49,153 nt of DNA, taken from contig JAZUDR010000239.1 in NCBI GenBank assembly GCA_045639725.1, positions 1 to 49,153 on the forward strand, in the 5' to 3' direction. The DNA comes from Candidatus Avigastranaerophilus sp. Lineage in GTDB: Bacteria > Muiribacteriota > Ozemobacteria > Ozemobacterales > Ozemobacteraceae. The notes under the pieces are model-generated. The model did not search any database. It saw nothing but the letters and a program-made list of their open reading frames with translations, and had not been told where the DNA came from. The stretch's first letter is position 1. Every line of letters starts with the position of its first letter. Made by a program: the position numbers and the translations under genes. Positions 9,801-39,303 of this stretch are shown piece by piece.

Positions 9801-9843
9801 CAACTTCGCTGATATTGGCCATTTTCAGTGTATCGCCAAACAT
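6835..9843 (-). CDS. Tri-domain fusion: acyl-AMP/CoA ligase (adenylation) - phosphopantetheine carrier - class-I-like HMG-CoA reductase domain
   Basis: I prefer the ATG at 9843 with AGGAG upstream; the track start at 9867 is TTG. Adenylation motifs are YTSGTTGKPKG (nt 9327..9359), GWGMTET and FKTGDLA. The carrier motif is QLDSLG, with the Ser codon at 8170..8172. HMGR motifs are LPIGVVGPL, VPLATTEGALVSS (around 7756..7776), NRGKKV, GDASGQN and GTVGGGT. Confidence 0.85.
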   Translation of the reverse strand: MFGDTLKMANISEVADVDALVFEQAGKVSKLTYKQLEEKSQEITEALNKVGITRGERVLMVTENHLLWMPIFLGIASSGKIAVPLDGNTAIDRFQAVIENSKPAAIVMMRKYSQRFNQYIPEDYKPKFIFEDEYEILIKANNSSHNPADRDPKPHDIAALMYTSGTTGKPKGIMLSHKAFIEAAKLAKKFVNCCAGDKVVAILPFSHVFALVESGIAPLYWHCTTIICNTLNPAEMFGLIMKYQSKFLLAVPRLCDLLAMTFMQNPDLKLPPLNIVVGGAAPNPKTLMLLASKGMHISQGWGMTETCAGIIFNNNCPPDSIGKPLEEVKFKIANPENGVGELLVSSPTMFSGIYGQPELDQSLFENGFFKTGDLAATDEAGNIYIRGRAKEVIISGSGVNVYPDELEVRLGMLKYAEEYSVFGIMLDNLEVPALAFVPRKGVFEGKDAKDVLAFVENDIRTRTEDWPEPEKIRKIFMLGAPLPRSASAKVKRFELADALSGKDHKPAELGHKDEKISSAPRNEQLFDAFRKEIADFLKADYQKIKLTTRLDSFIQLDSLGIIAMLLKLEKRFGISFKELIGSSVETFDDLFSFLATHVDTSKISETDRSDTASSKDMPPLLDYSLEAIEARQEFIRNNLSNQNFSLPKPDDPEAYSGNIEGFAGFVTLPIGVVGPLKVKGQEADGDFYVPLATTEGALVSSVARGCQIITMSGGAEVRILADSLIRTPVFEFDTLSNLEKFGKWIENNFAAIKKAADSTTKFGKLLEVEQYPIGTQMVLRFVYSTGDASGQNMTTIATRAAIDYILNAYDGSIYDWFLESNLSGDKKVNAVNFTRNRGKKVTAVVRIPADIVKQFLHTTPERIVRLGELTMITSLQAHSYGVQAHYANPLAAVYIACGQDPACVAESACGTTYMKLIDGDLQVSVTLPDIMVGTVGGGTRLPTQKKCLEIMQCSGPGKAKKLAEILAATVLAAEISITGAMASDEFTNAHAKYGRNGGMTQK

Positions 9844-9965
9844 GAGTAAAAACTCTCCTGTATACAATTTTTCAGTGAAGCATTATATCAGAAATTTATA
9901 AATAAAAAAAGACCTCTCTATTAGATGGTTGCCTAAAAATATAAAAAAGACAAAATAAATATTTT

Positions 9966-23494: not shown

Positions 23495-23668
23495 CTTACT
23501 TTGCCCCAAATATAGATATAATTTTATACCACAAGCAAGACATAAAAAGCAATAAACTATAAAAGCAGTCAAAGCTTAAAACTATATTTGAATTGCAATG
23601 TCGGTTTCCTAAAAATATTGCTCAAAATGCTAATAAATGATAACTTAATTTTAGGTGAAATTAATACG

Positions 23669-24130
23669 ATGAAGAGAATTTTCAAAAACAGGGCGTTTAC
23701 GTTGCCAGAGCTGTTAATCACTATTTTGTTGCTGGCTATTCTTTTTACTCTCGGAATTATTATGACGTCAGGTTTTGACCAATCCAAGAAGCTTAGAGAT
23801 TATAGCGTTGCTGTGGCATTGGCTCAACAGGCTCTGGAGATTGCGCGCTCATCACCTTTCGAAATTCTTGACGACGAGGACGCCGGTTCCAATAGTGTCG
23901 AAACAGATTTTAATTCTGTGAACGGTGAGAATGATCTCATTGTTCCTGATTATGATTCTGGCTTTGCAAAGTATCACAGATTTGTTGAAATTCATGATGT
24001 GAAAGCTGCTACTGATAATAATCGGTCTATTGGTCTCAAGACAATAAAGGTTACTGTAGAATGGAACGCCGATGAATCTGCCAAGAAAGAGAAATTTGTT
24101 GTTTCGTCTTCTATAGCTGATATTAACTAA
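23669..24130 (+). CDS. Prepilin-type N-terminal methylation-domain protein (pseudopilin/minor pilin)
   Basis: ATG at 23669 follows AGGTGA; the track start at 23588 is less likely. MKRIFKNRAFTLPELLITILLLAILF is the class III signal-peptide motif, with Glu at +5. Confidence 0.8.
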   Translation: MKRIFKNRAFTLPELLITILLLAILFTLGIIMTSGFDQSKKLRDYSVAVALAQQALEIARSSPFEILDDEDAGSNSVETDFNSVNGENDLIVPDYDSGFAKYHRFVEIHDVKAATDNNRSIGLKTIKVTVEWNADESAKKEKFVVSSSIADIN

Positions 24131-24141
24131 GGGCGCTTATT

Positions 24142-24888
24142 ATGAAGAGAAGATTTGCTTTTACTATAGTAGAAACCTTGATGGTGGCACTTATTATGTG
24201 CTTCATTCTCGGTTTTGCGTATAAGATTTTCTTCTCTCAGACAAGAGCTGTAACTCAGACAATCGATGCTTTGCAGACTAATGAAGGATTTAGACGTGTT
24301 CTGGCTTTCATGGGTGACGACATCCGTGAAGCGACTAGAATTGTTAAACCTACACCAGTTACTTTAGATCAGGTGAGCTCTATTGAAACAACCACGGGCT
24401 CAATAATGATTGTGCAGAGTTCTGAAATAGACCCGAAGATTCCTTTTGATAGCCCATTGGGAGGGCAGATTTCGCAGATATCGACTATCGAATATGAGCT
24501 TGAACCAATGAATAAACCTTCTGAAAACGGTCAGCTCTCCAGTGATGACGGGCCTGTCAGATACAGATTAGTAAGAAACGCTCATGTCGAAGAAAAAAAT
24601 GGTGAACAGAGCCGCCAAAGGCAGGTTATAGCTGACAATATCAAGGAATTGATAATCTATAGAACTGTTCGCAAGCCTTTTAAGGCAGCCAATATAGAAT
24701 CTTCCAGCGATAAGCTTATTGAACAGATTCCTTTAAGTGAAGCAGGAACCGGTAATAGCTTGATTCACGTAAAGATGGTCATAGAAAGACACCGCAACGA
24801 AAACGAAAAAGACAGGAAGAATATTTATACAATTACTATGAATACAAGCTTCTATAAGCGCGGAAAAGAGATATTCCTACACCCATGA
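24142..24888 (+). CDS. Prepilin-type N-terminal domain protein (minor pseudopilin)
   Basis: MKRRFAFTIVETLMVALIM is a prepilin-like leader plus hydrophobic helix. The gene is adjacent to and co-oriented with the previous one. Confidence 0.7.
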   Translation: MKRRFAFTIVETLMVALIMCFILGFAYKIFFSQTRAVTQTIDALQTNEGFRRVLAFMGDDIREATRIVKPTPVTLDQVSSIETTTGSIMIVQSSEIDPKIPFDSPLGGQISQISTIEYELEPMNKPSENGQLSSDDGPVRYRLVRNAHVEEKNGEQSRQRQVIADNIKELIIYRTVRKPFKAANIESSSDKLIEQIPLSEAGTGNSLIHVKMVIERHRNENEKDRKNIYTITMNTSFYKRGKEIFLHP

Positions 24889-27209
24889 TTAAATATATGA
24901 GAAATTCCAAAAGAGGTTCCGGATATTTAATAGTATTGGTCTTTGTATCATTACTATTGATTTTCTTTTATATTTTCGGAAGGGTAAGAAGTGGTCATCA
25001 TCAACTTCAGTCTAAGGATGTCAGACGCTTTGTCGCTTCTAATCTTGGTGAGTCTGCACTTAATTGTATCATGGCGGAACTGAATGCCAACAGAGCATAC
25101 AATACTCATCGTTATTATTCGGTTAAATCGCCCAAAAGATGGACTTCTCCTGTAAAAAGCCGTGATTCACTTCTCGGAAAAATGGACAACCTGACACTTA
25201 CCGGTGTAAAAAACGGTATATACGGTGGATACACTGATTATGGTGAATTTAAAGCTAAGTTTGCTCAGAATTTTGGTTCCAGAGAAAATGCCAAGACAAG
25301 GGCTCTCCGGGAATCAGAAATGTATACTAGAGTTGAAATCGTTGTAAAGGTTGGCGGTGGCTGGGGCATAAGGGAAGAAACCTATAGAAAGATCAGTGCC
25401 CTTCTGGAAAGAAGATACCCCGCTGGTGAACATCTGCTGTTTGATGGAGAAATGCTTGATGTTGGCGCCCTTGGCCCCTATGATAAACGAGAAAACAAAC
25501 TTATTGGCGGCAGACTATACGGCCATAACTGGATAACGTTTAATACTGCTGGTGGAGCATGCAAAGGCTCTGAAGTTGTCGATAATGAAAAGATTGAAAG
25601 CCCAGGGCTTATAAGGGCGTTGAAAGATACTGATTTACAGTTTAAAAATAAAGAAACCCATAAATTAACTAATAAGAACGATTCTGTATTTGTTTCCGAT
25701 TTCGAAGACTTTGACGGTTATATTGTAGATGGTCCTCACGGGGCACATCCAATAAAACTTACCAGACTGCCAAAAGAAAGAATTAAAAGAACGGCCACTA
25801 ACAACAAGACTTATGGCGTTATCATTGATTCTAAGACAAAACTTCCTGTAAGCAGTTATAAGAATCCTTATGACCCCAGTGCTAAGTATTATGACTTAGA
25901 TTTTAAGGATTACAGAGTAAATGCTGTTCCAAGGGATGACGACGATACAAGAACTACGAGGGCATCTTCGAGTGAAGAAGAGTCTCTGGGCGACGAAGAA
26001 GAAGTGGTAGATAACTTGGAATCCCTGGATTCTGATGACCCTGATATTATTAAAAAGTGTTCAGGCAGAAAGATTCTTGTTTATTCTGAGGTTCCACTCA
26101 GGATATGGGGATGTCCGGATAAGAGCATAACAATATATAGTACAAAAGATATTGTTATTGCCGGTGATTTTAACCAGAATCCTAAGACCTGTCAGGTCTA
26201 TAAAGACAATTATTATTCTGATTACAAGAAGACACTTAAAAATGGTAAGGATAACAATAAGATAGGGGCAATGGTAATGTCCGAAGGCCGAATTCTTATT
26301 GATGTCTCAAAACCAAGCAAGTTTATAAAAAATGAAGTTAAGCCATATTTTCTGTATTGCTTAGCCAAGAGCATGCATCCTTCAACTATTGAAATTGAAA
26401 ATGAATTAATAAAAATAGTATGTCCGGTAGAACCGGAAGAAAGAGATTCAATTCGTGGAGTTTCCAGTTCTGTTGGTGAAGATGGATTGCCAGAACCAAG
26501 ATTTGGCACAATGGCTTTCTTATACAATTATCCTGAAATAAACTCCAGCGGAAGCTATTATGCTAACATCGAAGACCTTCAGACGTTTTTTATGCCAGGT
26601 GGTACCGCTTTGGATCCTAAATTTGGCATAAAAGATAGTAAGGTTCGCGATGATATTATTGAATACATTAAACAAGCTGTTAGAAGTGGTGGGGATTTAA
26701 CTGTTGATGAACAGGATAGAATCTTTGAAATGGCTTGGAATCAGGCAATACTTGAAGAAGAACAGGAGTTTGACCCTGGTTGCGGCGCAGCGGGACTTAT
26801 TTCTGGGCTTTTTAATGAAGCTGTTAAGGATGCCAATGACGGTCTGTATGTTCCTGAAATTACTATAAATGCTACTTTGATTAGCTCTTGCCGCCGTTCT
26901 TCTGATTGGCGTATTGGGAATTCCAGCAAGAAAGTAAAAGATGAAATCGGTAATCCTGAAGAATATTTGAAGAAGCCAGGTTTTATTATTCAGAGAATCT
27001 ATGGTGGTGATATCAGGATTGGTAGAGCAGAACCTGAATATTATATTGATGGTTCTAACAGTGGTAATAATATTCTAAGAAAAAGAGTCTGGGATAACAC
27101 AAATCTAGCCAATAGGGATTTTAAACCATTGGAAGCTCCTGCTGTGCATAATATTTTAACATTCACAGAAGAACAGATCTCAGCAAAAGAATATAATAAT
27201 TTCAAATAA
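24885..27209 (+). CDS. Large (774 aa) N-terminally anchored protein in the pseudopilin operon (GspK/PilX-like position), acidic low-complexity insert
   Basis: KRGSGYLIVLVFVSLLLIFF is the N-terminal anchor. Its start overlaps the previous stop (ATGA). An acidic tract DDDDTRTTRASSSEEESLGDEEE is present. I recognise no further family. Confidence 0.5.
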   Translation: MIKYMRNSKRGSGYLIVLVFVSLLLIFFYIFGRVRSGHHQLQSKDVRRFVASNLGESALNCIMAELNANRAYNTHRYYSVKSPKRWTSPVKSRDSLLGKMDNLTLTGVKNGIYGGYTDYGEFKAKFAQNFGSRENAKTRALRESEMYTRVEIVVKVGGGWGIREETYRKISALLERRYPAGEHLLFDGEMLDVGALGPYDKRENKLIGGRLYGHNWITFNTAGGACKGSEVVDNEKIESPGLIRALKDTDLQFKNKETHKLTNKNDSVFVSDFEDFDGYIVDGPHGAHPIKLTRLPKERIKRTATNNKTYGVIIDSKTKLPVSSYKNPYDPSAKYYDLDFKDYRVNAVPRDDDDTRTTRASSSEEESLGDEEEVVDNLESLDSDDPDIIKKCSGRKILVYSEVPLRIWGCPDKSITIYSTKDIVIAGDFNQNPKTCQVYKDNYYSDYKKTLKNGKDNNKIGAMVMSEGRILIDVSKPSKFIKNEVKPYFLYCLAKSMHPSTIEIENELIKIVCPVEPEERDSIRGVSSSVGEDGLPEPRFGTMAFLYNYPEINSSGSYYANIEDLQTFFMPGGTALDPKFGIKDSKVRDDIIEYIKQAVRSGGDLTVDEQDRIFEMAWNQAILEEEQEFDPGCGAAGLISGLFNEAVKDANDGLYVPEITINATLISSCRRSSDWRIGNSSKKVKDEIGNPEEYLKKPGFIIQRIYGGDIRIGRAEPEYYIDGSNSGNNILRKRVWDNTNLANRDFKPLEAPAVHNILTFTEEQISAKEYNNFK

Positions 27210-27896: not shown

Positions 27897-30644
27897 TTAT
27901 TTAGCCGCTGGTAGAACTTGCTTTATAATTGGTAGCAATGATTTTATTCTACTATTTAACAAATCGACCTTTTGGCTTAACCACGTTAATGGTTGTTCAA
28001 AATCTGTTGAAATATAAACCATATCCTTTTCCTGCTGCATTTTTATGGTTGTGGGCAGGTTCATATTTTTAGCATTAAGCTTGAATTGGAATAGACGTCT
28101 TGCTAATTTTTTCATGAAGGCGTCATCTTCGGTTTTACCGGTTGAGCCAATGATAAACTCATTGAGAACATCGTCTGTATAGGTATAGCTTGATTGCAAT
28201 CTTGTAAATGGTTCAACAGGATTACTTATAAAACCAACTACAAGCTGTGGGATTCTTGTTTTGAATTCGTTCCAATCGATGTAGAATTCAAGCATATAGC
28301 CTTTCCTGTATGGCAATACGTTGGCAAGACTGTCTACTATTTCCTGGGTTAACTTGTTCTTTGAAAAATAGACTGCATTGCCATTTATCATACTGTAATA
28401 GTTGCCTGATATCAGTTTTATCTGACAATTATCTGGTGACATTTCCTGACTTTTTTCTTTTTTATAGCCAAACATGTTTATTATTGCCTGTTGCAATTCA
28501 GTAGCATTGTTTTTGTCTGATTCGATTCTTGTTATTGCAGTAGCTGAAGGTGCTATGAATCTGTCGATAAATATCGTTACATTGCAGTCCTTGTAGCCGT
28601 TCAGCTTAGGAACATATTCTCCTATGGCTTTGAATAATTCAGAACAGAATGAAACAGCAACCGGATATTTTATCGGAGCTGGAAGAGTTATTATATTAGA
28701 ATCTGTAGAAGTCTTGTTTTCGCTGCTTTTTGGGGCAGGTTCTTCTGAAGGTGCTGCAGAAGACGGTTCTTCGGATTCTTCATCAGGTTCCAAGATTGCG
28801 TCTTCATCTTCATCCTCTTCTTCGGCTTCTGTTTCAGATGCTTCTTCTTCGTTGTCGTCTTCTTCAGCTTGATCTGCTTCTTCGGAAGATTCCTTTACAG
28901 GAGCCTCCGGTTTGTTTTGAGTTTCTTTTACGACTGCATAATGAAGCTTATAGCTATTAAGTAGAGGTTCTTTGAGAGTTTTTAATCCCTTTTGCAGGTC
29001 TGAACAGATTCTTGTGATTTCTATAGATTTTTCGTAAAGACCTTCTTCCTGGTAGAGTCTGGAAATACCAGTAAGTATATTTATTACCTTTTCTTTATCT
29101 GCTTTTTCACCTAGTAGACCATGATAATCAGCCATTGCTTCATGATATGCTTTCAAGCGGATTGTAAGATAAAGGGTTTCGTCCGGATCTTCCATTCCAG
29201 GGGCTGATTTGAAAGCTTCCTTAACGAAGGTTAAAGCATTTTCAAATTCGTTTTTGTCCAGATATACTCTTCCAAGATGAAGCAGGATTTCGCCTTGGCC
29301 CGGAACAAGATTATTTGCTTTCTGAAGGTTGGTGAGAGCGTTTTCTAAGTCGCCGTTTCTGTAATATGCCCAGCCTAGTGTGTCTAGGTAAGAAGCGTTA
29401 TTGGGTTCCAGCTCATTAGCTGTTACTGCCATCTTTAATGCTTCTTGCGCATTTTTATTCTGTTCTGTGTAGAGATAAGCAAGATTGTTTAAGGTTTCTG
29501 CTGAATCAGGTCTGAGCTTAACTGCGATTTCATACTGTTCGGCAGCCTTATCTAATTGTTTTGTAGAATAATACACTGTGGCGAGGTGATTATGGGATTC
29601 ATATACATTGCCACGCATTTCAATTGATTTTTGAAGTGATTCTTCTGCAAGCTGATAGTTTCTATTCTTAAAGGCTGCCCAGCCAAGACTGTCATAAAAG
29701 CCTGGATTTTCTGGAGAAAAATCTACAGCTCTTTGGCATAAATCTTGTGCTGTTTGTGTATTTACACCATATTCAGCATATAAATAACCAAGGTTGTTCA
29801 GAGCATGAGGATTCCCTGGTGACATTTCAAGAATCTTTTTGTAAACAGCTTCTTCCAACCAGAAGGGTTCCTGTTTGTTCTTTTGCTGATATTCTTCGTG
29901 AAGACCCATGTAAATGCTGAGGAGAGAGTTCTGAAGCTTCTGATTGTGCGGGTCTAGTGAAGATGCCTTTTCGTAGGAGGCTATTGCAAGGAATAAGGCT
30001 GATTCACTACCGCCTATGTATCTGAAGCACTGACCCATTACATAATAATATTGAGCAGTCTTAGGAATGATTGTTAAGGCAGCTTTGAGGTCTTCCTCTG
30101 GCTTCATTAATTGAAAATAATTGTTGGGGCGGTCTCTTAATGCGTTGAAGATAATGCCCTTAGCTATCCAATAATTGGCATTTTCTGCTAAGTCATCTTC
30201 ATTGTCGAGGAGGAGTTCCTCAAATTCCTGATCTTTCTTATTTTCAGGATCTTCTGTTTTGTCTGATTGCAAGAGGAGACCAGCATAAAAGATTTCTCTG
30301 AGCTTTTCTTCCTGAGTTGGTTTCTTTTTGTCTTTGGTTGAAAAATATTTATTCCCTGCAGCTAGTAATTCTGCATGGCGTGGGGTATCTGATAGCTTTA
30401 TGAGTGTGAACCAGCGGTTAATTGCATGAAACTGCGCAAGAACATCATTGTCATGTTCAAGAATGTATTTTTTTAAAAGCTGAAGATTATAGTCTGTTGG
30501 CTTGGTTTTCTCAAAATTTACTTCTTCCTGCTTGAAAAGTGGTAATGCAAAATCAAAATTGATTTCTGCACTGAGCTTTGTACATAAGCCCAAGACCAGT
30601 ATTGCAATTGTGCAAAATACGGTGCGCACACGTCCCTTGAACAT
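27897..30644 (-). CDS. Exported TPR-repeat protein with poly-acidic linker and uncharacterised C-terminal domain
   Basis: I prefer the ATG at 30644 (AGGAGG plus 6 nt) over the track start at 30671. The signal/anchor is MFKGRVRTVFCTIAILVLGLC. Many TPR units are visible (ALNNLGYLY, AWAAFKNRNY, LGWAYYRNGD...). The linker is an E/D-rich tract (EEADQAEEDDNEEEASETEAEEEDEDED), and ~270 aa of unknown domain follow it. Confidence 0.7.
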   Translation of the reverse strand: MFKGRVRTVFCTIAILVLGLCTKLSAEINFDFALPLFKQEEVNFEKTKPTDYNLQLLKKYILEHDNDVLAQFHAINRWFTLIKLSDTPRHAELLAAGNKYFSTKDKKKPTQEEKLREIFYAGLLLQSDKTEDPENKKDQEFEELLLDNEDDLAENANYWIAKGIIFNALRDRPNNYFQLMKPEEDLKAALTIIPKTAQYYYVMGQCFRYIGGSESALFLAIASYEKASSLDPHNQKLQNSLLSIYMGLHEEYQQKNKQEPFWLEEAVYKKILEMSPGNPHALNNLGYLYAEYGVNTQTAQDLCQRAVDFSPENPGFYDSLGWAAFKNRNYQLAEESLQKSIEMRGNVYESHNHLATVYYSTKQLDKAAEQYEIAVKLRPDSAETLNNLAYLYTEQNKNAQEALKMAVTANELEPNNASYLDTLGWAYYRNGDLENALTNLQKANNLVPGQGEILLHLGRVYLDKNEFENALTFVKEAFKSAPGMEDPDETLYLTIRLKAYHEAMADYHGLLGEKADKEKVINILTGISRLYQEEGLYEKSIEITRICSDLQKGLKTLKEPLLNSYKLHYAVVKETQNKPEAPVKESSEEADQAEEDDNEEEASETEAEEEDEDEDAILEPDEESEEPSSAAPSEEPAPKSSENKTSTDSNIITLPAPIKYPVAVSFCSELFKAIGEYVPKLNGYKDCNVTIFIDRFIAPSATAITRIESDKNNATELQQAIINMFGYKKEKSQEMSPDNCQIKLISGNYYSMINGNAVYFSKNKLTQEIVDSLANVLPYRKGYMLEFYIDWNEFKTRIPQLVVGFISNPVEPFTRLQSSYTYTDDVLNEFIIGSTGKTEDDAFMKKLARRLFQFKLNAKNMNLPTTIKMQQEKDMVYISTDFEQPLTWLSQKVDLLNSRIKSLLPIIKQVLPAAK

Positions 30645-30732
30645 TTTTTGCCTCCTGAGATGCTGTTCCATCTCATATATAAGTGGCAGGGAATATACTG
30701 TTTGTCTTTTCCCTGCCAGAATTTCTATTATA

Positions 30733-33700
30733 TTAACCGAGAGTTGTTGTCTGCTTTTGACTGCGGATTATTGCGAACTGGTCATGATAATCCTGAAGTA
30801 TCTTCTGGATGCCACGCTTGATTGAAAGCAATTCATCGCTTGAAGCCCTGACTTCATGATTCTGTTTGATTTCCTGTTCAATGGCTTCTTCAATCTTTTT
30901 CACCTTAGCACTGATGAATGGCAGATATCTGTTGACAAATTCTTCCTGCTTCGGGAATGGAAGTGATTTCCAATATTCATTGTAAACAGTTCTTATTAGA
31001 TAGAGACCCATAGTGTTGTTCTTCAGGTAGTCAAACAACTGAATAAGGGTTCTGCCGATTGGCTGCGGCTTATCCTGCTGATACCACAATTCATACTGAA
31101 CAAGTTCTGAATTGTATTCAATACCGTGTTTGCCGTGAACATTGTCAGCCATGAGTTCATAGCGAAGCAGCAAATAAACCATGTAATGTTCTTCAAGCTT
31201 CTTGGCTGGAATCAGACTGTAGCTGGACCAGAGAATCGGGTAGGCGTCATTGTTGAGAATAGCATGGCAGTTAATCTTGGCGTTATTCTTTCTATAGAGA
31301 TTATGCCACTGTGCGATAGAACTCAGATTGTATGGGGCGATACCATGCAGAGTCTGAAGAAGACTGATTTCGTAAGGATTTCTTGTTGGAGCAACAGAAA
31401 CACCTATGTCACCCTTGCGCAGGCTTTCCTTGATTTCTTCTGTGAGCTTGCTGTTTTCATCAGAAATACCAAGGGTTACTATGTTCATGCGCTGTGGCTG
31501 ATTGTTGCCACGGTCATTGAGAGTAACCAACGGAGTAGACTGATTCATGAGGCTTTCTACAAGACTCTTCTTGTAGCCCTTCTTTACCGAATCCTTCCAA
31601 TGGATGAAATCTTCGATACCGCCGAATAATCTGCGCTGAATTGAATCACGGCAGTATTTTACGATATCTTCTTCAAGAGTATTGGTTTCATGGGTTGTAT
31701 ATTTGTCCCAGTTTTCCTTGAGATTTAACTTAATAAGGAAATTTCCTTCGATGTCATTGTTGGACAAATCGCCAAGCAGATATTTGTAGAAAGGTTCGAT
31801 ATCTCTTTCTTCAAAGATATATGTTCTGATGAATTTCTGAACCTTTGAATACGGCTTAATCTTTTCTAGGCAACGTTCATACTGGCGTTCAAGGTTACCA
31901 TCCTTGGAAATCTGAATAAGTCTGTTGTTAAATACTTCAACTTTTTTGCGGATATTCTGGGCTTGAACATTCAAATACTTCAGGAAGTCTTCAACACAAT
32001 TCATACAGAACATTTCATATTCCATGTCAATTGCTTCTCTGGTTTCTTTGAGCAATTTGTCGCGGAATTCACCAAGCTTGGTTTTCCTGAAAACATCTGC
32101 TATTTTGCTCTTAAGGCCCATGAAGCCGCTAAGTTCATCTTTTAGCTGAATAGCAACTTCTGTATATTCGCGTTTTTCCTTATCAAGCTTTGCTTTGATT
32201 TCCTGAGATTTGCGAACAAGCTGATCCTTGGGATATCTGATAAGGTATTTTTCAAAAGCTATTAAGAAATCTATTGAAACCTGAGCGCCAAGGTCTGGAT
32301 CGTTTATGATTTCAATAACCTTGTCTCTAAGATGTTCGCCAGCTTTCTTTGCGGCTTCTTCAAATTTTATGCGAACCTGAGCTCTGATATCGTCTTTCTT
32401 AACTCTGTCAGAGTCAGTTTCCTGAATCTGTCTTAATATGAATGCAGAACCAGATTCATTTTCCTTCTGCTTGTTTGAAACTTTAACGGTATGGAAACGA
32501 GGATTATCCCAGTATTCCTTGCGCTTGATAATATCTTTGCTGAGTGCAAGCAAACCTTCCGGAGTTAAATCCAATACGCTTGGATTGTTTTCTGCAAATT
32601 CCTGAACCATGGCGTCAAGAAGGATTCTGTCCTTAGATAGCTTGAGCCAGTAGTTTACGTCCATTGAAAGCTTGTAGGTATAAAGCTCTCTGATTATATC
32701 TAATGGATAGTAGAAACTCTTGAAACCTGCGGAACTGAAGCACTTCAACTGCTTGCCTTCCAGGTCTGAACTGAATTGGCCAAGAATCTGGGAGGCATTG
32801 TCAAGCATTGAATTCTGTGCCTGACGAAGCTGAGTTGCAAGCTTTGTGAAAATCAGTTCAGAAGCTATTGCATAATAGGTCTGAATATCATCCATATTGC
32901 TAGTACCAAGCAAATAGCACTGATCAAATGGAGGTTCCTCTGCAACAGTACCGAAGGTGGTTGTGTCATTGCTCTTGCCAATTGGACCATAATTAACCAT
33001 GAATTTGTTGCGGCGGTCCTGGGCAATGATGTCTTTGGCAGACTGAGTCGGCGGGAATTTTTCTTTGTTCATAAAGTAATAGGTTTCTGCTAATGAAGCG
33101 TAACCATTACCTTCAATTCTACCTGTGGAGTTTACATTTGGGTCTATGGCAATCTGGGTGAATGCTTCAGGAGTGAGTTCAATGCCTATGATTGATGGCT
33201 TGCCTTTACCACCAGAAAGCTGATAATAAGCCATCTTGAGCAAATAGGCCATATCCATGAACATACCAGCACCGGAACCACCACACATTGAACCAACTAC
33301 ATAGAATTCAGGAGTAAGAATCTGGCCCTGCTTGTTGGTTAACGGAACAATGATGTCTTCTTGGTTTACATTACCACGGGCCATGATTTTGCTAATCTTG
33401 CTCTTCAGCAACATGAAAATCTTCTGGACATCTACAAAAACGCCAAAACGGCCTGTAAATCTAAATTGGTGAGCACCTTGACTTATCTGGCCAATATGGG
33501 TTTTTAACTTCTGAGGAAACCATTCGTAAAGATAACCATAAGTGTCTGTATCCAGATTGTTGGTTATCTGACCTGCATTTTGAATGTTAATCTGATGATA
33601 TTCGCTTTCACTAAGCTTTACTGCAGATTTTTCCTCTTCTTTCTCTGGCTGGTTTGCATCAAAAATGTCTGTGTCGATGCATAACAAATCTATGAAATCA

Positions 33701-33864
33701 GGAAGAGAGGTTTCTGTTTGTCCAGATTGTTCGTAGGCCCTTCTTATCTGTGGACTTGTCAAAAAGGTTTCCTTGAAATTCATCAGGGCTTTTTTGCCTG
33801 TTCCACCAAGACCAACGATTAATGCTGGATTTAATGCTATTCTGTTTTCGTAGTTGACACTCAT
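30733..33864 (-). CDS. Giant tubulin/FtsZ-superfamily-like GTPase (Tubulin_2-type N-terminal domain, long coiled-coil/helical C-terminal region)
   Basis: ATG at 33864 follows GGGAG; the track start at 33879 is TTG. The T1-like loop is LIVGLGGTGKKAL (nt 33790..33813). GAHQFRFTGRFG is also present. The T4/signature-like loop is VVGSMCGGSGAGMFMD (nt 33265..33294, verified by back-translation). There is no signal peptide. Confidence 0.65.
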   Translation of the reverse strand: MSVNYENRIALNPALIVGLGGTGKKALMNFKETFLTSPQIRRAYEQSGQTETSLPDFIDLLCIDTDIFDANQPEKEEEKSAVKLSESEYHQINIQNAGQITNNLDTDTYGYLYEWFPQKLKTHIGQISQGAHQFRFTGRFGVFVDVQKIFMLLKSKISKIMARGNVNQEDIIVPLTNKQGQILTPEFYVVGSMCGGSGAGMFMDMAYLLKMAYYQLSGGKGKPSIIGIELTPEAFTQIAIDPNVNSTGRIEGNGYASLAETYYFMNKEKFPPTQSAKDIIAQDRRNKFMVNYGPIGKSNDTTTFGTVAEEPPFDQCYLLGTSNMDDIQTYYAIASELIFTKLATQLRQAQNSMLDNASQILGQFSSDLEGKQLKCFSSAGFKSFYYPLDIIRELYTYKLSMDVNYWLKLSKDRILLDAMVQEFAENNPSVLDLTPEGLLALSKDIIKRKEYWDNPRFHTVKVSNKQKENESGSAFILRQIQETDSDRVKKDDIRAQVRIKFEEAAKKAGEHLRDKVIEIINDPDLGAQVSIDFLIAFEKYLIRYPKDQLVRKSQEIKAKLDKEKREYTEVAIQLKDELSGFMGLKSKIADVFRKTKLGEFRDKLLKETREAIDMEYEMFCMNCVEDFLKYLNVQAQNIRKKVEVFNNRLIQISKDGNLERQYERCLEKIKPYSKVQKFIRTYIFEERDIEPFYKYLLGDLSNNDIEGNFLIKLNLKENWDKYTTHETNTLEEDIVKYCRDSIQRRLFGGIEDFIHWKDSVKKGYKKSLVESLMNQSTPLVTLNDRGNNQPQRMNIVTLGISDENSKLTEEIKESLRKGDIGVSVAPTRNPYEISLLQTLHGIAPYNLSSIAQWHNLYRKNNAKINCHAILNNDAYPILWSSYSLIPAKKLEEHYMVYLLLRYELMADNVHGKHGIEYNSELVQYELWYQQDKPQPIGRTLIQLFDYLKNNTMGLYLIRTVYNEYWKSLPFPKQEEFVNRYLPFISAKVKKIEEAIEQEIKQNHEVRASSDELLSIKRGIQKILQDYHDQFAIIRSQKQTTTLG

Positions 33865-34066
33865 TGTAAATGCTCCCAAATTAGACTAGTCAATGATTCA
33901 GTATAGCAACTTTATTATCTATAATCAATTTTTATTATTAAGGTGCAGTTTTTTTATTATTGCTAAAAACTTAAAACGGAATATTTGTCTTTTGATGTTT
34001 GTTGGTGTAAACTAAAAAAAACTTTACGTTAAATGAAAGTAAAATACTACTACATGGAGTGATAGT

Positions 34067-36041: not shown

Positions 36042-36296
36042 TTAATGATGGAAACCAGTTTTTCCCTCTACAAACCATTTGTCATCTTCGTGAAACAAAA
36101 AGGTTTCTTTGCCCAGGACCATAATTGTATATCTGACACCACAGCCTCCAACCTTTGTTGAAGCTGCTCTGCATTCTCTTTTTATTCTATCAATTTCGTA
36201 TACATGACCATCTTCCCAGGTTATAGACAGTGGCTTTATGTGCCCATATTTATCATTCATTACAGTTACATCTACATAAATTTTTATTCTTTCCAT
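36042..36296 (-). CDS. Small (84 aa) protein translationally coupled to the Y-family polymerase, unknown function
   Basis: Its ATG (36296..36294) shares one base with the polymerase TAA (36298..36296). I recognise no motif. Its position is analogous to accessory subunits of TLS polymerases. Confidence 0.55.
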   Translation of the reverse strand: MERIKIYVDVTVMNDKYGHIKPLSITWEDGHVYEIDRIKRECRAASTKVGGCGVRYTIMVLGKETFLFHEDDKWFVEGKTGFHH

Positions 36297-37531
36297 TATC
36301 TGAATACTCCAGTGGGCATTGTTATCTCAGGTCTGCTTTTGGGCAAAGTGCTAGGAAAAAGTAATATGGCGTTTTTTATAGCTCCCTTGCCAAATCTGTG
36401 CCTGATTTCTTCTATTGTGAGGTCTAGTCTTTCCCGCTTCCTGATTGCTTCATAGTCCGTAAAAAGGTCATATTGCACCTCCTGGGCTTCCTCTATGAGG
36501 TCTATTGCTCTCAAGGTTACTGATCTTATGGGAAACTCCCATGCATAGCTTTGCTGAAAAAGCATAAAAGCTGTTTTTACGATATTGCTGGAGCTTTGTG
36601 TGGGTGATGGAAGCTTGCACTGCCATTCCTGACAGCAGAGCTGATTGTTGCGTATAACAATAGATACACCGCAGGCTTTCTTTTTGTGTTTACGCAGTCT
36701 GGTGCCAATATCCTGAACCAGGTCTATCATTACGGCCCAGACTTCTGAGTCTGTTTCTAGGTCTTGAATAGTAGTAATTCCATGACCAATGCTTTTTATG
36801 GGAAAGACATAATCTGTTCTATGAACAACAGAACAATCCGACCCGTTGGCAAAAGCAATGAGGGCCAACCCGTTTTTGCCAAGCCGCCTTTGAATTAATT
36901 CTTTAGGAGCGTTTGCCAGGTCACCGATAGTGGAAATACCGAATCTGTTTAAGACTCTGGTAGTGGCTCTACCAACTCCAAGAAGGTCTGAAGCTGGTAA
37001 CCCCCATATTTTCTCCTTGAATGAATCTTTGTCTATGCAGGTTACTGCGTCTGGTTTCTTTAAATCGCTGCCAAGCTTTGCAAATATCTTATTAAAGCTG
37101 ACTCCAACGGAAATTGTCAGACCAAGCTCAAATTTTATTGTCCGTCTTATTTTGTGGGCTATTTGAAGCCCTGTGCCAAAGGCTTTCTGGCTGCCAGTGA
37201 TGTCTAGGAAGCATTCATCCATTCCGTAGGGTTCTATCTGGTTGGTATAGCGGCTGTATATTTCTCGGGCAAGTTTTGAGAACTTTATATATTGCTCGTA
37301 GTGTGGTTCTACGATTACTACTTTGTTGAATTTCTGTTTGGCTTGCCATATAGCGTCTCCTGTTGCAATGCCCACTGCTTTTGCCTTGTAATTTTTGGCT
37401 AATACAATGCCATGGCGGTTTTCTACAGACCCGGCAACAGCAACTGCTTTGTCTTTTAGACTAGGGTCCAGCATGCATTCTACGCTTGCAAAAAAGTTAT
37501 TCATGTCGCAATGCAGTATAGTTCTTTCCAT
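36296..37531 (-). CDS. Y-family (translesion) DNA polymerase, PolY2/UvrX/UmuC-like
   Basis: ILHCDMNNFFASVEC, YGMDECFLDITG (catalytic acidic residues) and SVGVSFNKIFAKLGSDLKKPD are all present. Confidence 0.85.
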   Translation of the reverse strand: MERTILHCDMNNFFASVECMLDPSLKDKAVAVAGSVENRHGIVLAKNYKAKAVGIATGDAIWQAKQKFNKVVIVEPHYEQYIKFSKLAREIYSRYTNQIEPYGMDECFLDITGSQKAFGTGLQIAHKIRRTIKFELGLTISVGVSFNKIFAKLGSDLKKPDAVTCIDKDSFKEKIWGLPASDLLGVGRATTRVLNRFGISTIGDLANAPKELIQRRLGKNGLALIAFANGSDCSVVHRTDYVFPIKSIGHGITTIQDLETDSEVWAVMIDLVQDIGTRLRKHKKKACGVSIVIRNNQLCCQEWQCKLPSPTQSSSNIVKTAFMLFQQSYAWEFPIRSVTLRAIDLIEEAQEVQYDLFTDYEAIRKRERLDLTIEEIRHRFGKGAIKNAILLFPSTLPKSRPEITMPTGVFR

Positions 37532-37553
37532 AAACTGTTTCTCTTGACATAAT

Positions 37554-37653
37554 GAGAAGTTCTGATTATATTAATAGGAAGTTAAACTTCCCATGTTTAA
37601 ATGATAAGAAGTTTAACTTCTAAAGTCAAGCAAAAATGAGAAGTTTAACTTCT
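37554..37653. promoter_or_regulatory. Operator array: three perfect 13-bp palindromes GAAGTT-N-AACTTC plus one half-site, in the divergent promoter region between the polymerase and the XRE gene
   Basis: The sites are ggaagttaaacttcc (37577..37591), agaagtttaacttct (37607..37621) and agaagtttaacttct (37639..37653), with a gaagtt half-site at 37556..37561. Centre-to-centre spacing is 30 and 32 bp. On the minus strand, TTGACT (37629..37624), 17 nt, then TATCAT (37606..37601) has site 2 filling the spacer. On the plus strand, TTGACA (37544..37549), 17 nt, then TATATT. Confidence 0.7.
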
Positions 37654-37750
37654 ATCTTGGCGGCTTGTTAAAAAATGTATTGCAATACGGCTGTTGGCTC
37701 GGTTGGCGTTGTAATTGTGCATTGTGAATTTATTAGGAAGGTTGATAATA

Positions 37751-38158
37751 ATGACTTTTGGTGAAAAAGTCCGGGCAGCACGGACAAAACTCAAGCTAAC
37801 ACAAGATGTGTTGGCTGAAAGAGTAGGGGTTTCCAGAAGAGTAATAACCTCTTACGAAACAGATAAATCACGTCCCCGTGGCACTGCAGGCTATCAGCGG
37901 CTAGCAGATGCTCTTGAAGTGAACATAAATTATTTGCTTCAGGAAGAAGAAGCTTTTATTGCTGAAGCAGAAGAACAATTCGGCTATCGTGGCAAGAAAG
38001 GCGCAGAAAAGCTTCTTTCAGAAGTAACAGGTCTATTTGCTGGCGGTGATATGGCCGAAGAAGACATGGATGAGCTCATGCTTGCTATTCAGGAAGCCTA
38101 TATTCTTGCCAAAAAACGCAATAAAAAATACGCTAAGACTAACAAAGATATACGCTAA
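37751..38158 (+). CDS. XRE-family helix-turn-helix transcriptional repressor (ImmR/DdrO-like position)
   Basis: ATG at 37751 follows AGGAAGG; the track start at 37715 is less likely. LKLTQDVLAERVGVSRRVITSYETDKSRP is an HTH_3 motif. Confidence 0.8.
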   Translation: MTFGEKVRAARTKLKLTQDVLAERVGVSRRVITSYETDKSRPRGTAGYQRLADALEVNINYLLQEEEAFIAEAEEQFGYRGKKGAEKLLSEVTGLFAGGDMAEEDMDELMLAIQEAYILAKKRNKKYAKTNKDIR

Positions 38159-38170
38159 TAAAGCTAATGA

Positions 38171-38252
38171 CAGCTTTTAGCTGCTAGCTATTGGCTATTT
38201 GCTAGAGCAATGATTTTTCCCGGCCAAAAGTAACGTCTAACAGCCATAAGCT
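38171..38252. repeat. Degenerate/rearranged fragment of the dispersed intergenic repeat family (copy C)
   Basis: It shares the 12-mer tagctattggct (38185..38196 = 42521..42532) and taacgtct (38231..38238 = 42491..42498) with copy B, in the opposite order. It lies between the XRE and ImmA genes. Confidence 0.45.
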
Positions 38253-38291
38253 TATTAGAACATACTTTTAATTCGGTCTATAAATATAACT

Positions 38292-38792
38292 ATGAATATT
38301 TTCTCCAAAGTTAAACAGATACTAAATCGTTATCACACTACTAATGCTGATAAATTAGCTGAAGAACTCGGTATTATCGTTTTGCCACGTCCTTTTAAAC
38401 GCCAGAAGGGTGTTTATAAAATAATCGAGCGTAACCGTTTTATATTCATAAAAGAAGACCTGCATCCGGTGATGCATAATATTGTGCTTTTGCATGAAAT
38501 AGGCCATGACGTGCTTCATAGAAAAGAAGCGCTGCTTGCCGGCGGTTTTAAGGAATTTAACCTCTTTGATATGGCTAATAATCGTATGGAATACGAAGCA
38601 AATATGTTTGCTGCCCTGATTTCACTGCCAGATGAAGAAATTATTGATTATATAACTCAAGGCTATGATGTAGCTCAGATTGCCGCTCTTATGAACTCTG
38701 ATATAAACCTTGTGGCATTGAAGGTGGCTGACTTGAATAACCGTGGCACCAATTTCATAAAACCAGCTCACAGAAACGATTTCCTGAAATAA
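38292..38792 (+). CDS. ImmA/IrrE-family (COG2856) zinc metalloprotease
   Basis: LLHEIGHDVLH carries the HExxH motif. The 166-aa size and pairing with an upstream XRE gene are typical. Confidence 0.8.
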   Translation: MNIFSKVKQILNRYHTTNADKLAEELGIIVLPRPFKRQKGVYKIIERNRFIFIKEDLHPVMHNIVLLHEIGHDVLHRKEALLAGGFKEFNLFDMANNRMEYEANMFAALISLPDEEIIDYITQGYDVAQIAALMNSDINLVALKVADLNNRGTNFIKPAHRNDFLK

Positions 38793-38793
38793 C

Positions 38794-39054
38794 TCAATCC
38801 TCGTAATGGCCTTTACAAGCTATTATCAATAAATTACCGGAACTGTCTATGTCATATATTAGTCGGTTTTTTTCATCAATGCGACGACTCCAGACATTTC
38901 TGTATTTTAATAATTCTGGTTTTTCAATACCCTCATTAAGACCGTTTCTCTCAATGTCTTTTATTAATTCATTTATTCTTTTTAAAGTCTTTTTATCTAT
39001 TGTTTGCCAATAGATATAATCATCCCAGGCTCTATCGGACCATAGTTTCTGCAT
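38794..39054 (-). CDS. yoeB: YoeB/Txe-family type II toxin (mRNA interferase)
   Basis: MQKLWSDRAWDDYIYWQTIDKKTLKRINELIKDIERN...WSRRIDEKNRLIY...IIACKGHY is near-colinear with canonical YoeB. Confidence 0.9.
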   Translation of the reverse strand: MQKLWSDRAWDDYIYWQTIDKKTLKRINELIKDIERNGLNEGIEKPELLKYRNVWSRRIDEKNRLIYDIDSSGNLLIIACKGHYED

Positions 39055-39057
39055 TGG

Positions 39058-39303
39058 TTAGTCCTCTATTAGTTCATGGGGAGTGCCATTGCCGGATCTT
39101 AGTTGTTCTATTGATTTGTCTAAATTATATAAATATTCAGCATTTCTAGCTGCCTTAGATATTCTATTCCATTCATCCAGACTTAGCATTACTACGTTTT
39201 TTTCGTTTTTTCTTGTAATTATGACTATTTCTTCATCGTCGGACACTTTGTCGCAATAATTTTTAAAATTTTCTCTGATGGTTGAATAGTTAACGGCAAT
39301 CAT
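39058..39303 (-). CDS. yefM: YefM/Phd-family antitoxin
   Basis: 81 aa. MIAVNYSTIRENFKNYCDKVSDDEEIVIITRKNEKNVVMLSLDEW. It lies 3 nt upstream of yoeB. Confidence 0.85.
   Translation of the reverse strand: MIAVNYSTIRENFKNYCDKVSDDEEIVIITRKNEKNVVMLSLDEWNRISKAARNAEYLYNLDKSIEQLRSGNGTPHELIED

Follow-up and report, generated by a model that had tools for sequence, protein, structure and literature searches.

An FtsZl1/Tubulin_2 protein conserved in a Riflebacteria lineage whose locus has lost its ancestral operon partners

Introduction

What does a divergent tubulin/FtsZ-like GTPase do in a bacterial lineage in which the genes that accompanied it ancestrally are missing from its locus? The question is raised by an open reading frame (ORF) of 1043 codons plus a stop codon, at 30733..33864 on the minus strand of a 49,153-nucleotide stretch of Candidatus Avigastranaerophilus sp. 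(contig JAZUDR010000239.1; the whole stretch is hereafter termed the window). An initial annotation, made from the sequence alone, described the product as a tubulin/FtsZ-superfamily GTPase of Tubulin_2 type with a very long helical tail. The frame, counted from its ATG, is real, and its product is almost certainly a member of the FtsZl1/Tubulin_2 family (Pfam PF13809).

FtsZ-like 1 (FtsZl1) was defined by Makarova & Koonin 2010 (Biol Direct, PMC2875224) from Huta_2051, a 1051-residue protein of Halorhabdus utahensis, as a group of ~1000-residue proteins comprising an FtsZ-like head, an extended coiled coil and a C-terminal domain described as 'mostly alpha-helical'. Neither the T6-H7 region nor the FtsZ C-terminal domain could be aligned in these proteins, which perhaps do not form filaments; a 2011 review likewise considered filament formation doubtful and the function not known. 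According to the defining study, FtsZl1 operons typically encode a vWA protein (present in most, not all, published members), a divergent P-loop GTPase, OmpA-family proteins or kinases, and the role predicted for them was that of a membrane-remodelling machine. Members are reported there from Deinococcus, Myxococcales, cyanobacteria, Planctomycetes and haloarchaea. The group has since been equated with Pfam Tubulin_2 (Santana-Molina et al. 2023) and cited, without being tested, in a paper on planctomycete division genes, whilst Kaur, Burroughs, Iyer and Aravind (eLife 2020, PMC7159879) re-read neighbourhoods containing a tubulin with a coiled-coil or alpha-helical C-domain, transmembrane vWA proteins and paired TRAFAC GTPases as 'GTPase-centric' conflict systems.

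The initial statement that Tubulin_2 proteins have been discussed only computationally holds in the searchable literature; that on Riflebacteria cell biology yielded nothing useful. The head-plus-tail layout noted in the window is already published for FtsZl1, and the window gene is a further member of that family. We believe four points to be new here: that structure comparison confirms the head, which domains the tail contains, that the operon was reduced stepwise under continued constraint, and that two of the ancestral partners share an N-terminal peptide beginning MVEV.

Results

Residues 15-402 of the window protein score 175.1 bits with PF13809 (E=3.2e-51), for which the gathering cut-off is 27, and the alignment spans profile positions 1-353 of 356. 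When 1.84 billion cluster representatives were scanned exhaustively with HMMER, 1031 proved to be relatives at E<=1e-3, 208 of them at E<=1e-10; most have 900-1200 residues. A second, profile-based search with word-based candidate selection found only six further distant members. The more general Tubulin/FtsZ family PF00091 is matched by 20 of 26 diverse family members (best E=1.8e-6). A phmmer search of the window protein against PDB sequences gave nothing relevant, and scans against NCBIfam and PADLOC-DB v2 gave no match.

The nucleotide-binding loops picked out initially, LIVGLGGTGKKAL from residue 15, GAHQFRFTGRFG from residue 130 and VVGSMCGGSGAGMFMD from residue 189, proved to be family-wide features, the GGTG and GGSGAG elements being 96-99% conserved when scored, as are all motif figures here, as columns across 127 distant family members. 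The T1 loop, G18-L-G-G-T-G23 (33796..33813; all features of this gene lie on the minus strand), is 97-98% conserved and invariant in the 26-sequence alignment A1. At the end of strand S2 (residues 58-64 in the model described below) lies D64-T-D66 (33667..33675), of which D64 is 99% conserved. The FtsZ T2 and T3 motifs read NTD and GAGANPEVGR, respectively, and D64-T-D66 is a likely equivalent of the former. The latter would correspond to G130-A-H-Q-F-R-F-T-G-R139 (33448..33477; 97-99%), which has the same spacing but contains the family-specific residues Q133 and R135; it reads GAHQ[FY]RFTGR in 46/46 Riflebacteria orthologues, and GAxQxRxxGR as a family consensus. The S4-T4 signature, S192-M-C-G-G-S-G-A-G200 with D204 (33253..33291; 96-99%, D204 98%), follows the family consensus SxCGG[ST]G[SA]G, and the columns of its GGSGAG loop, like those of T1, are invariant in A1. 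GGSGAG is how the loop is spelled throughout the Riflebacteria, so the variant has not arisen by degeneration in the window. A further acidic residue, E88, is 94% conserved. As the T1, T2, T3 and T4 loops are all intact, the head most likely binds GTP.

Two further elements are candidates for functional residues. Invariant N253 (33106..33108; 99% conserved), within an ANxYAAL helix spanning residues 246-265 of the model, may be the guanine-contacting Asn. S352-M-L-D-N356 (32797..32811), at the end of helix 346-361, is a candidate analogue of T7, with N356 invariant in A1 and S.LDN present in 46/46 Riflebacteria orthologues; the loop that follows it (364-371) is modelled with a predicted local distance difference test score (pLDDT) of <50. 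Beyond the nucleotide pocket, strong conservation extends to the surface motifs W115, Y207, Y292 and P312-F313.

A 78-sequence alignment, reduced from 138 sequences, gave an AlphaFold2 (AF2) model of residues 1-420 with a pLDDT of 82.5 and a predicted template-modelling score of 0.83. The head comprises residues 1-410 (32635..33864) and is 91% identical to the closest orthologues. All of the top 50 PDB matches that Foldseek gives for the model are to TubZ, FtsZ or alpha-, beta- or gamma-tubulin, at a probability of ~1.0, and no other P-loop or Rossmann family appears among them; as modelled, the head truly has the TubZ/FtsZ fold, and the superfamily assignment made at the outset is borne out by both the Pfam and the structural comparisons. 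The best match is 2xka_E (E=3.7e-5), a protofilament subunit of TubZ from Bacillus thuringiensis pBtoxis (PDB 2XKA), with ~360 aligned columns at a root-mean-square deviation of ~8 A. However, identity to TubZ is only 9-11% and TM-scores are 0.32-0.36, the window provides no TubR/tubC partition context, and TubZ, at ~400-480 residues, has no counterpart of the 640-residue stalk and C-terminal domain.

With canonical FtsZ the window protein shares the Rossmann-like GTPase fold and equivalents of T1 to T5, and the Foldseek matches include the S. aureus and B. subtilis structures (E=6.5e-5 to 1.3e-3). In contrast to FtsZ, it has neither an FtsZ_C domain nor the C-terminal FtsA/ZipA-binding peptide, replaces N and P of the T3 motif by Q and R, contains large inserts, and is encoded outside a dcw-type context, amongst genes for Bmp, TPR, Hfq, LigA, ComEC and others. 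When the head profile was aligned by hhalign with a two-sequence FtsZ reference (approximate sequences), only the S4-T4-H4-S5-T5 block was paired, at 5% probability; this pairs the window T4 with FtsZ GGGTGTG and is used solely to map the loops, homology being argued on other grounds. A tblastn search for canonical FtsZ found none in the window or in ~1.3 Mb of Riflebacteria loci, which says nothing of whole genomes.

The remainder of the protein consists of a charged helical stalk and bundle (residues 411-760; 31585..32634), delimited on the AF2 tail model, and a conserved C-terminal domain (residues 761-1043; 30736..31584), delimited on the model and family motifs. The model of residues 401-1043 (pLDDT 84.8) contains long helices at ~490-521, ~526-579 and ~589-654 and a helical bundle extending to ~775, followed by an alpha/beta module at ~793-860 that bears conserved motifs, a four-strand beta-meander at ~905-937 and a terminal helical hairpin. 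The earlier description of a helical tail of no recognised family stands in so far as Foldseek detects no significant structural relative in the PDB or BFVD; it does not stand as regards a purely helical character, given the predicted alpha/beta module and beta-meander, and the architecture is that published for FtsZl1. Matches of the tail to ClyA-type toxins, cohesin HEAT repeats and tape-measure proteins were rejected as generic long-helix similarity (TM-score <0.2), as were, on compositional grounds, those of the stalk to apolipoprotein and designed coiled coils when the A1 profile was compared with PDB sequences.

Conservation is uneven along the tail. The stalk (K+R 18%, D+E 19%) is the least conserved region of the protein, at 75-79% identity to close orthologues, against 87-95% for the C-terminal domain and 91% for the head. 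Motifs that recur family-wide in the C-terminal third are PLxxL, GIxD, TxNPxxI, QxxHGxP, Y857 and H867, and several distant members align to the window protein over ~850 residues, tail included; judged by these alignments, the tail is homologous across the family and not an add-on. The extreme C-terminus is poorly conserved and unrelated to the FtsZ anchor-binding peptide.

Overall, the window protein has in common with published FtsZl1 the Pfam family, the size class, the three-part layout, the T1 and T4 loops and the inserts between them, and in neither can an FtsZ C-terminal domain be aligned. The predicted composition of its C-terminal domain differs from the published 'mostly alpha-helical' description. 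Riflebacteria orthologues also retain the published operon with vWA and divergent GTPase genes, both of which are gone from the locus in the window lineage.

This loss becomes apparent on comparison of the loci. The host, judged by the source names of the orthologues, belongs to the Riflebacteria/Rifleibacteriota. Full-length FtsZl1 orthologues were found at 63-88% identity across this phylum, and their neighbourhoods were examined by way of eight protein look-ups and 35 GTDB Riflebacteria genomes reached via the vWA partner. In deep Riflebacteria (FtsZl1 64-68% identical to that of the window), a divergently oriented Bmp gene is followed by genes for FtsZl1, a small multi-transmembrane protein, a vWA protein, two successive GTPases, often the TPR protein, and Hfq; in Rifleibacterium (75-81%) the order is Bmp, FtsZl1, vWA, TPR, Hfq; and in the window clade (84-100%, five loci) it is Bmp, FtsZl1, TPR, Hfq. 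Reading these gene orders as a series, first the GTPases and then the vWA gene were deleted stepwise from the locus of the window lineage. Throughout this phylum-level sample the locus keeps Bmp on its upstream side and TPR-Hfq on its downstream side, which argues for vertical inheritance of the core.

The vWA partner is a transmembrane-anchored protein of ~346 residues with an intact MIDAS motif, and its gene adjoins FtsZl1 orthologues at <=80% identity to the window protein. None was found in the four other window-clade loci, nor was any Riflebacteria vWA orthologue seen away from the FtsZl1 locus, although the presence of the window clade in the genome collection is unconfirmed. That the vWA domain had been fused into the TPR protein was considered and rejected, as tblastn with vWA finds nothing in the window. 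The paired P-loop GTPases, present in deep Riflebacteria and absent from the Rifleibacterium loci and the window, each contain a hydrophobic segment and match MMR_HSR1 and Dynamin_N, the latter marginally, at or below the gathering cut-off, with a weak resemblance to LeoA/LeoBC. DynA/DynB and LeoA/LeoBC (Eleos) resemble the system only through these lost partners (Dynamin_N, MMR_HSR1, hydrophobic segment), genes for which are absent from the window.

In the lineages that retain them, the vWA protein and the unrelated 84-116 residue multi-transmembrane protein start with the same peptide, MVEVxPxxx(E/P)(I/L)(K/R)I, followed by a transmembrane helix (e.g. L005:13210-13464 and L005:13504-14541). 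The peptide is invariant on both membrane proteins in >25 Riflebacteria loci (L002, L005, L001, L011-L043), whilst a distant vWA partner in L078 is without it. The shared peptide may serve to dock FtsZl1 on the cytoplasmic side.

Some contigs met in this comparison merit separate mention. Two that are labelled as other organisms, L018 (SABV01000042.1, 'Erysipelotrichia bacterium') and L027 (DYKG01000006.1, 'Candidatus Methylomirabilis sp.'), contain a Rifleibacterium-type FtsZl1-vWA-TPR-Hfq block at 77-79% identity and are probably mis-binned or mislabelled. P0048, a 730-residue product of a 2464-bp ENA contig, matches the N-terminal half of the window protein at 99% identity and additionally has a Pfam match to CheB methylesterase; the contig being so short, this is probably an assembly chimera. 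Distant family members form tandem pairs in L078:7071-21640 and in two ENA contigs with P0206, where a Tubulin_2 protein of ~1190 residues is followed by a weak Tubulin_2 match of ~1325 residues with a signal-peptide-like N-terminus. Before each pair comes a protein of 933-964 residues, which is a vWA protein in L078 and has no recorded Pfam match in the P0206 contigs; after it come protein kinases and very large proteins.

Loss of partners might imply that the FtsZl1 gene of the window clade is itself decaying, a reading prompted by the absence from these loci of the vWA gene, the small transmembrane protein and both GTPases. Against this, the 1043-residue frame is intact in 5/5 window-clade loci, as is every nucleotide-binding motif. 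Compared with its closest orthologue, the window FtsZl1 has a non-synonymous divergence (dN) of 0.079 with saturated synonymous divergence (dS), giving dN/dS ~0.03; across close orthologues dN is 0.08-0.10, and all three regions of the protein are constrained. Relative to the divergence of its flanks, TPR and Bmp, that of FtsZl1 is 0.54 and 0.63, respectively, for the window clade, 0.54 and 0.61 for deep lineages with all partners, and 0.38 and 0.53 for Rifleibacterium. Because the ratio is the same with and without partners, no relaxation of constraint has followed their loss; the selection analysis effectively refutes the notion of a remnant, which we consider extremely improbable.

The same gene orders bear on the other neighbour singled out initially, a TPR/acidic ORF downstream on the same strand. 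This ORF is real (27897..30671, minus strand) and encodes a secreted protein with Pfam TPR families and an acidic linker, orthologous to the TPR proteins of L003 (51%) and L005 (42%). Translation probably begins from the second ATG (30644), where an AGGAGG Shine-Dalgarno sequence lies 6 nt upstream, rather than from the first (30671), which has no good one; the signal peptide predicted from 30644 is MFKGRVRTVFCTIAILVLGLCTKLSA, followed by EINFDF. The suggestion that this syntenic neighbour is a functional partner of FtsZl1 could draw on the spacing of 61-88 bp on one strand, with no recognisable terminator between the genes, and on the occurrence of TPR-Hfq 3' of the FtsZl1 operon in most sampled Riflebacteria. 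The spacer does contain an inverted repeat with 7-bp arms, GGCAGGG-N19-CCCTGCC (30685..30717, minus strand); no T-run follows it, and a terminator scan made no call there.

Several observations nevertheless speak against partnership, and we regard it as very improbable. The classic Sec signal peptide would place the TPR protein outside the cytoplasm and FtsZl1 within it. Ancestrally, two to four genes separated the two; the L005 copy of the TPR gene is 8 kb upstream and in the opposite orientation, and no copy occurs within 10 kb of FtsZl1 in L002 or L036, so that whereas TPR-Hfq does lie downstream in most Riflebacteria, TPR as a conserved adjacent partner does not hold up. The Bmp gene upstream is equally syntenic, so gene order reflects a stable chromosome region, and adjacency in the window is accounted for by deletions within that region. 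The TPR protein moreover evolves about twice as fast as FtsZl1, and an indirect connection in the periplasm, by way of the vWA domain, could be envisaged only for lineages that retain vWA.

As to the gene itself, the ATG is preceded by a GGGAG Shine-Dalgarno sequence 8 nt to its 5' side (33873..33877), and an alternative TTG start at 33879 was rejected because it overlaps this sequence, leaving the ATG as the start. Upstream, a 202-bp divergent intergenic region (33865..34066), common to FtsZl1 and the Bmp/PnrA-type lipoprotein gene and presumed to hold promoters, is AT-rich as first described (25% GC, vs 39.5% for the whole window). The promoter part of that description fares less well: two weak minus-strand -35/-10-like sites upstream of FtsZl1 (33941-33914 and 33928-33900) are matches of a kind that occurs at chance frequency, and 18 promoter-like hexamers were found in the region vs 17.7 expected from shuffled sequence, i.e. 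no enrichment. An FtsZl1 promoter of its own is thus plausible but, with hexamers at chance frequency, not demonstrable from such scans. No transmembrane segment or signal peptide was found in FtsZl1, the highest 19-residue hydropathy being 0.99, which agrees with the absence of a signal peptide noted initially and indicates a soluble cytoplasmic protein.

The published re-reading of such neighbourhoods makes it necessary to weigh whether FtsZl1 belongs to an anti-phage or immune conflict system, in which it would assemble on an infection signal and organise effectors at the membrane. The ancestral Riflebacteria operon indeed resembles the GAP1-N2 GTPase-centric systems of Kaur et al. 2020, described in PMC7159879, in combining a tubulin with a helical C-domain, a transmembrane vWA protein and paired TRAFAC GTPases, and the latter weakly resemble LeoA/LeoBC of the Eleos defence system; in the window, a toxin-antitoxin pair and a helix-turn-helix/ImmA pair lie 4-5 kb away. 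P0055, a full-length relative at 39% identity, is encoded in an island that also specifies four TIR proteins, a PIN protein and a DUF4011 helicase-like protein; its setting looks like a conflict island and unlike the Riflebacteria loci. The contig concerned (L001:1-23114) also encodes a 1839-residue TIR/DUF4011/MTES_1575 protein, a vWA-HATPase-STAS protein and, on the opposite strand, an orthologue of the 346-residue vWA protein.

At the Riflebacteria locus itself, however, PADLOC-DB v2 has no match for FtsZl1 (of the window or L002) or for vWA, and no effector, GAP1 or FNIII repeat was detected there or in the Riflebacteria operons, GAP1 being judged by gene content and not by a profile; the window, furthermore, has neither the GTPases nor vWA, and its gene content includes no DO-GTPase and no GASH protein, which likewise characterise the GAP1-type systems. 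Defence islands are usually mobile and patchy in distribution, and conflict proteins evolve fast. In contrast, the FtsZl1 locus is syntenic, with a fixed chromosomal position and housekeeping flanks across the whole Riflebacteria sample, and FtsZl1 is more conserved than its neighbours, at the low dN/dS given above. On balance we judge a conflict role possible but unlikely.

Elsewhere in the window, a 1010-residue ORF at 6835..9867 (minus strand) fuses an AMP-binding domain of acyl/aryl-CoA ligase type (residues 24-362) to a complete HMG-CoA reductase (636-1003), which is an unusual architecture. A cluster of small stress- or mobile-type modules occupies 36042..39303, comprising a DinB-type polymerase (IMS) with an overlapping 84-residue ORF (36042..37531, minus), a helix-turn-helix regulator with an M78/ImmA-like peptidase (37715..38792, plus) and a pair of small ORFs resembling, by eye from their translations, YoeB/YefM-type toxin-antitoxin (38794..39303, minus); the polymerase and regulator/peptidase part is also present in L007. 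Finally, an operon-like set at 23588..27209 (plus) encodes a pseudopilin-like protein with a prepilin N-methylation motif, a 248-residue protein and a 774-residue protein, the last of which is anchored at its N-terminus, contains an acidic stretch and matches no Pfam family; the set is conserved beside Hfq in L006, L007 and L009.

Discussion

The ancestral operon, with its transmembrane vWA protein, multi-transmembrane protein, membrane-associated GTPases and shared MVEV peptide, points to an envelope or membrane-remodelling machine. We therefore lean, though only somewhat, towards FtsZl1 being a GTP-regulated cytoplasmic scaffold at the membrane that was ancestrally part of such a machine. 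GTP binding to the head would control self-association, whether through the stalk or in the head-to-tail manner of TubZ and FtsZ; the resulting assembly would form beneath the inner membrane, where the C-terminal domain may dock membrane proteins, and the ancestral complex of vWA protein, small transmembrane protein and two dynamin-like GTPases would remodel or maintain the envelope. GTP binding and hydrolysis, assembly, membrane association and docking are each steps that we infer. In the window lineage, where FtsZl1 is kept under purifying selection without these partners, it would act either without them or with unlinked ones.

A number of points weigh against this scaffold proposal. No vWA, GTPase or MVEV-bearing transmembrane gene is present anywhere in the 49-kb window, so that the link to the membrane is indirect there; some distant relatives lie in conflict-type islands; and no experimental study of the activity, structure or phenotype of any FtsZl1 member was found in the searchable literature. 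As regards the head, its Foldseek TM-scores are low (0.24-0.47), as expected from the large inserts, and the window protein itself gives no match to PF00091. No T7 catalytic loop can be identified with confidence, so filaments and a polymerisation-stimulated GTPase may not occur. In agreement with what was first noted, Pfam detects no FtsZ_C or Tubulin_C domain in the window protein, nor in any of 25 diverse relatives, and the head model has only two short strands past residue 240 and no four-stranded C-terminal sheet.

These last features are also what would be expected were FtsZl1 a non-polymerising GTP switch, forming a dimer or oligomer through the stalk, with nucleotide state gating binding by the C-terminal domain. 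Dimerising stalks typically have a long helical hairpin of this kind, and the published doubts over filaments, which rest on the unalignable T6-H7 region (PMC2875224) and were repeated in 2011, are in keeping with it. Nevertheless, the best structural match of the head is to a protofilament subunit, over the ~360 columns noted above, the conserved SxxDN after the long helix could be an analogue of T7, and W115, Y207, Y292 and P312-F313 are compatible with polymer contacts. A pure switch consequently deserves consideration as a minority candidate.

A bolder reading is that FtsZl1 is a self-sufficient, new tubulin-superfamily polymer, in which the Q133/R135 T3 loop, the SxxDN element and perhaps the alpha/beta module acting in trans replace the activation domain and T7. 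We think this rather doubtful. If true, the window clade, which keeps the protein strongly constrained with every operon partner gone, would show that the core activity of FtsZl1 is an autonomous cytoskeletal or envelope-organising function, and not one accessory to vWA/dynamin machinery or to defence.

With the GTP-regulated scaffold as our preferred, if tentative, interpretation, the locus bears on the family as a whole. No branch of the tubulin/FtsZ superfamily is more divergent than FtsZl1/Tubulin_2, for which >1000 sequence clusters were found across bacteria and archaea, and two incompatible computational readings of it are current, membrane remodelling and conflict system. The window locus does not settle which is correct, but a stable, vertically inherited locus within one phylum fits a housekeeping role better than mobile defence. 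The tail emerges as a conserved multi-domain unit without a solved relative, and the MVEV peptide of the ancestral partners provides a concrete binding hypothesis. The window protein, as a natural 'minimal' FtsZl1 without vWA or dynamin-like partners, offers a simple one-protein target for biochemistry.

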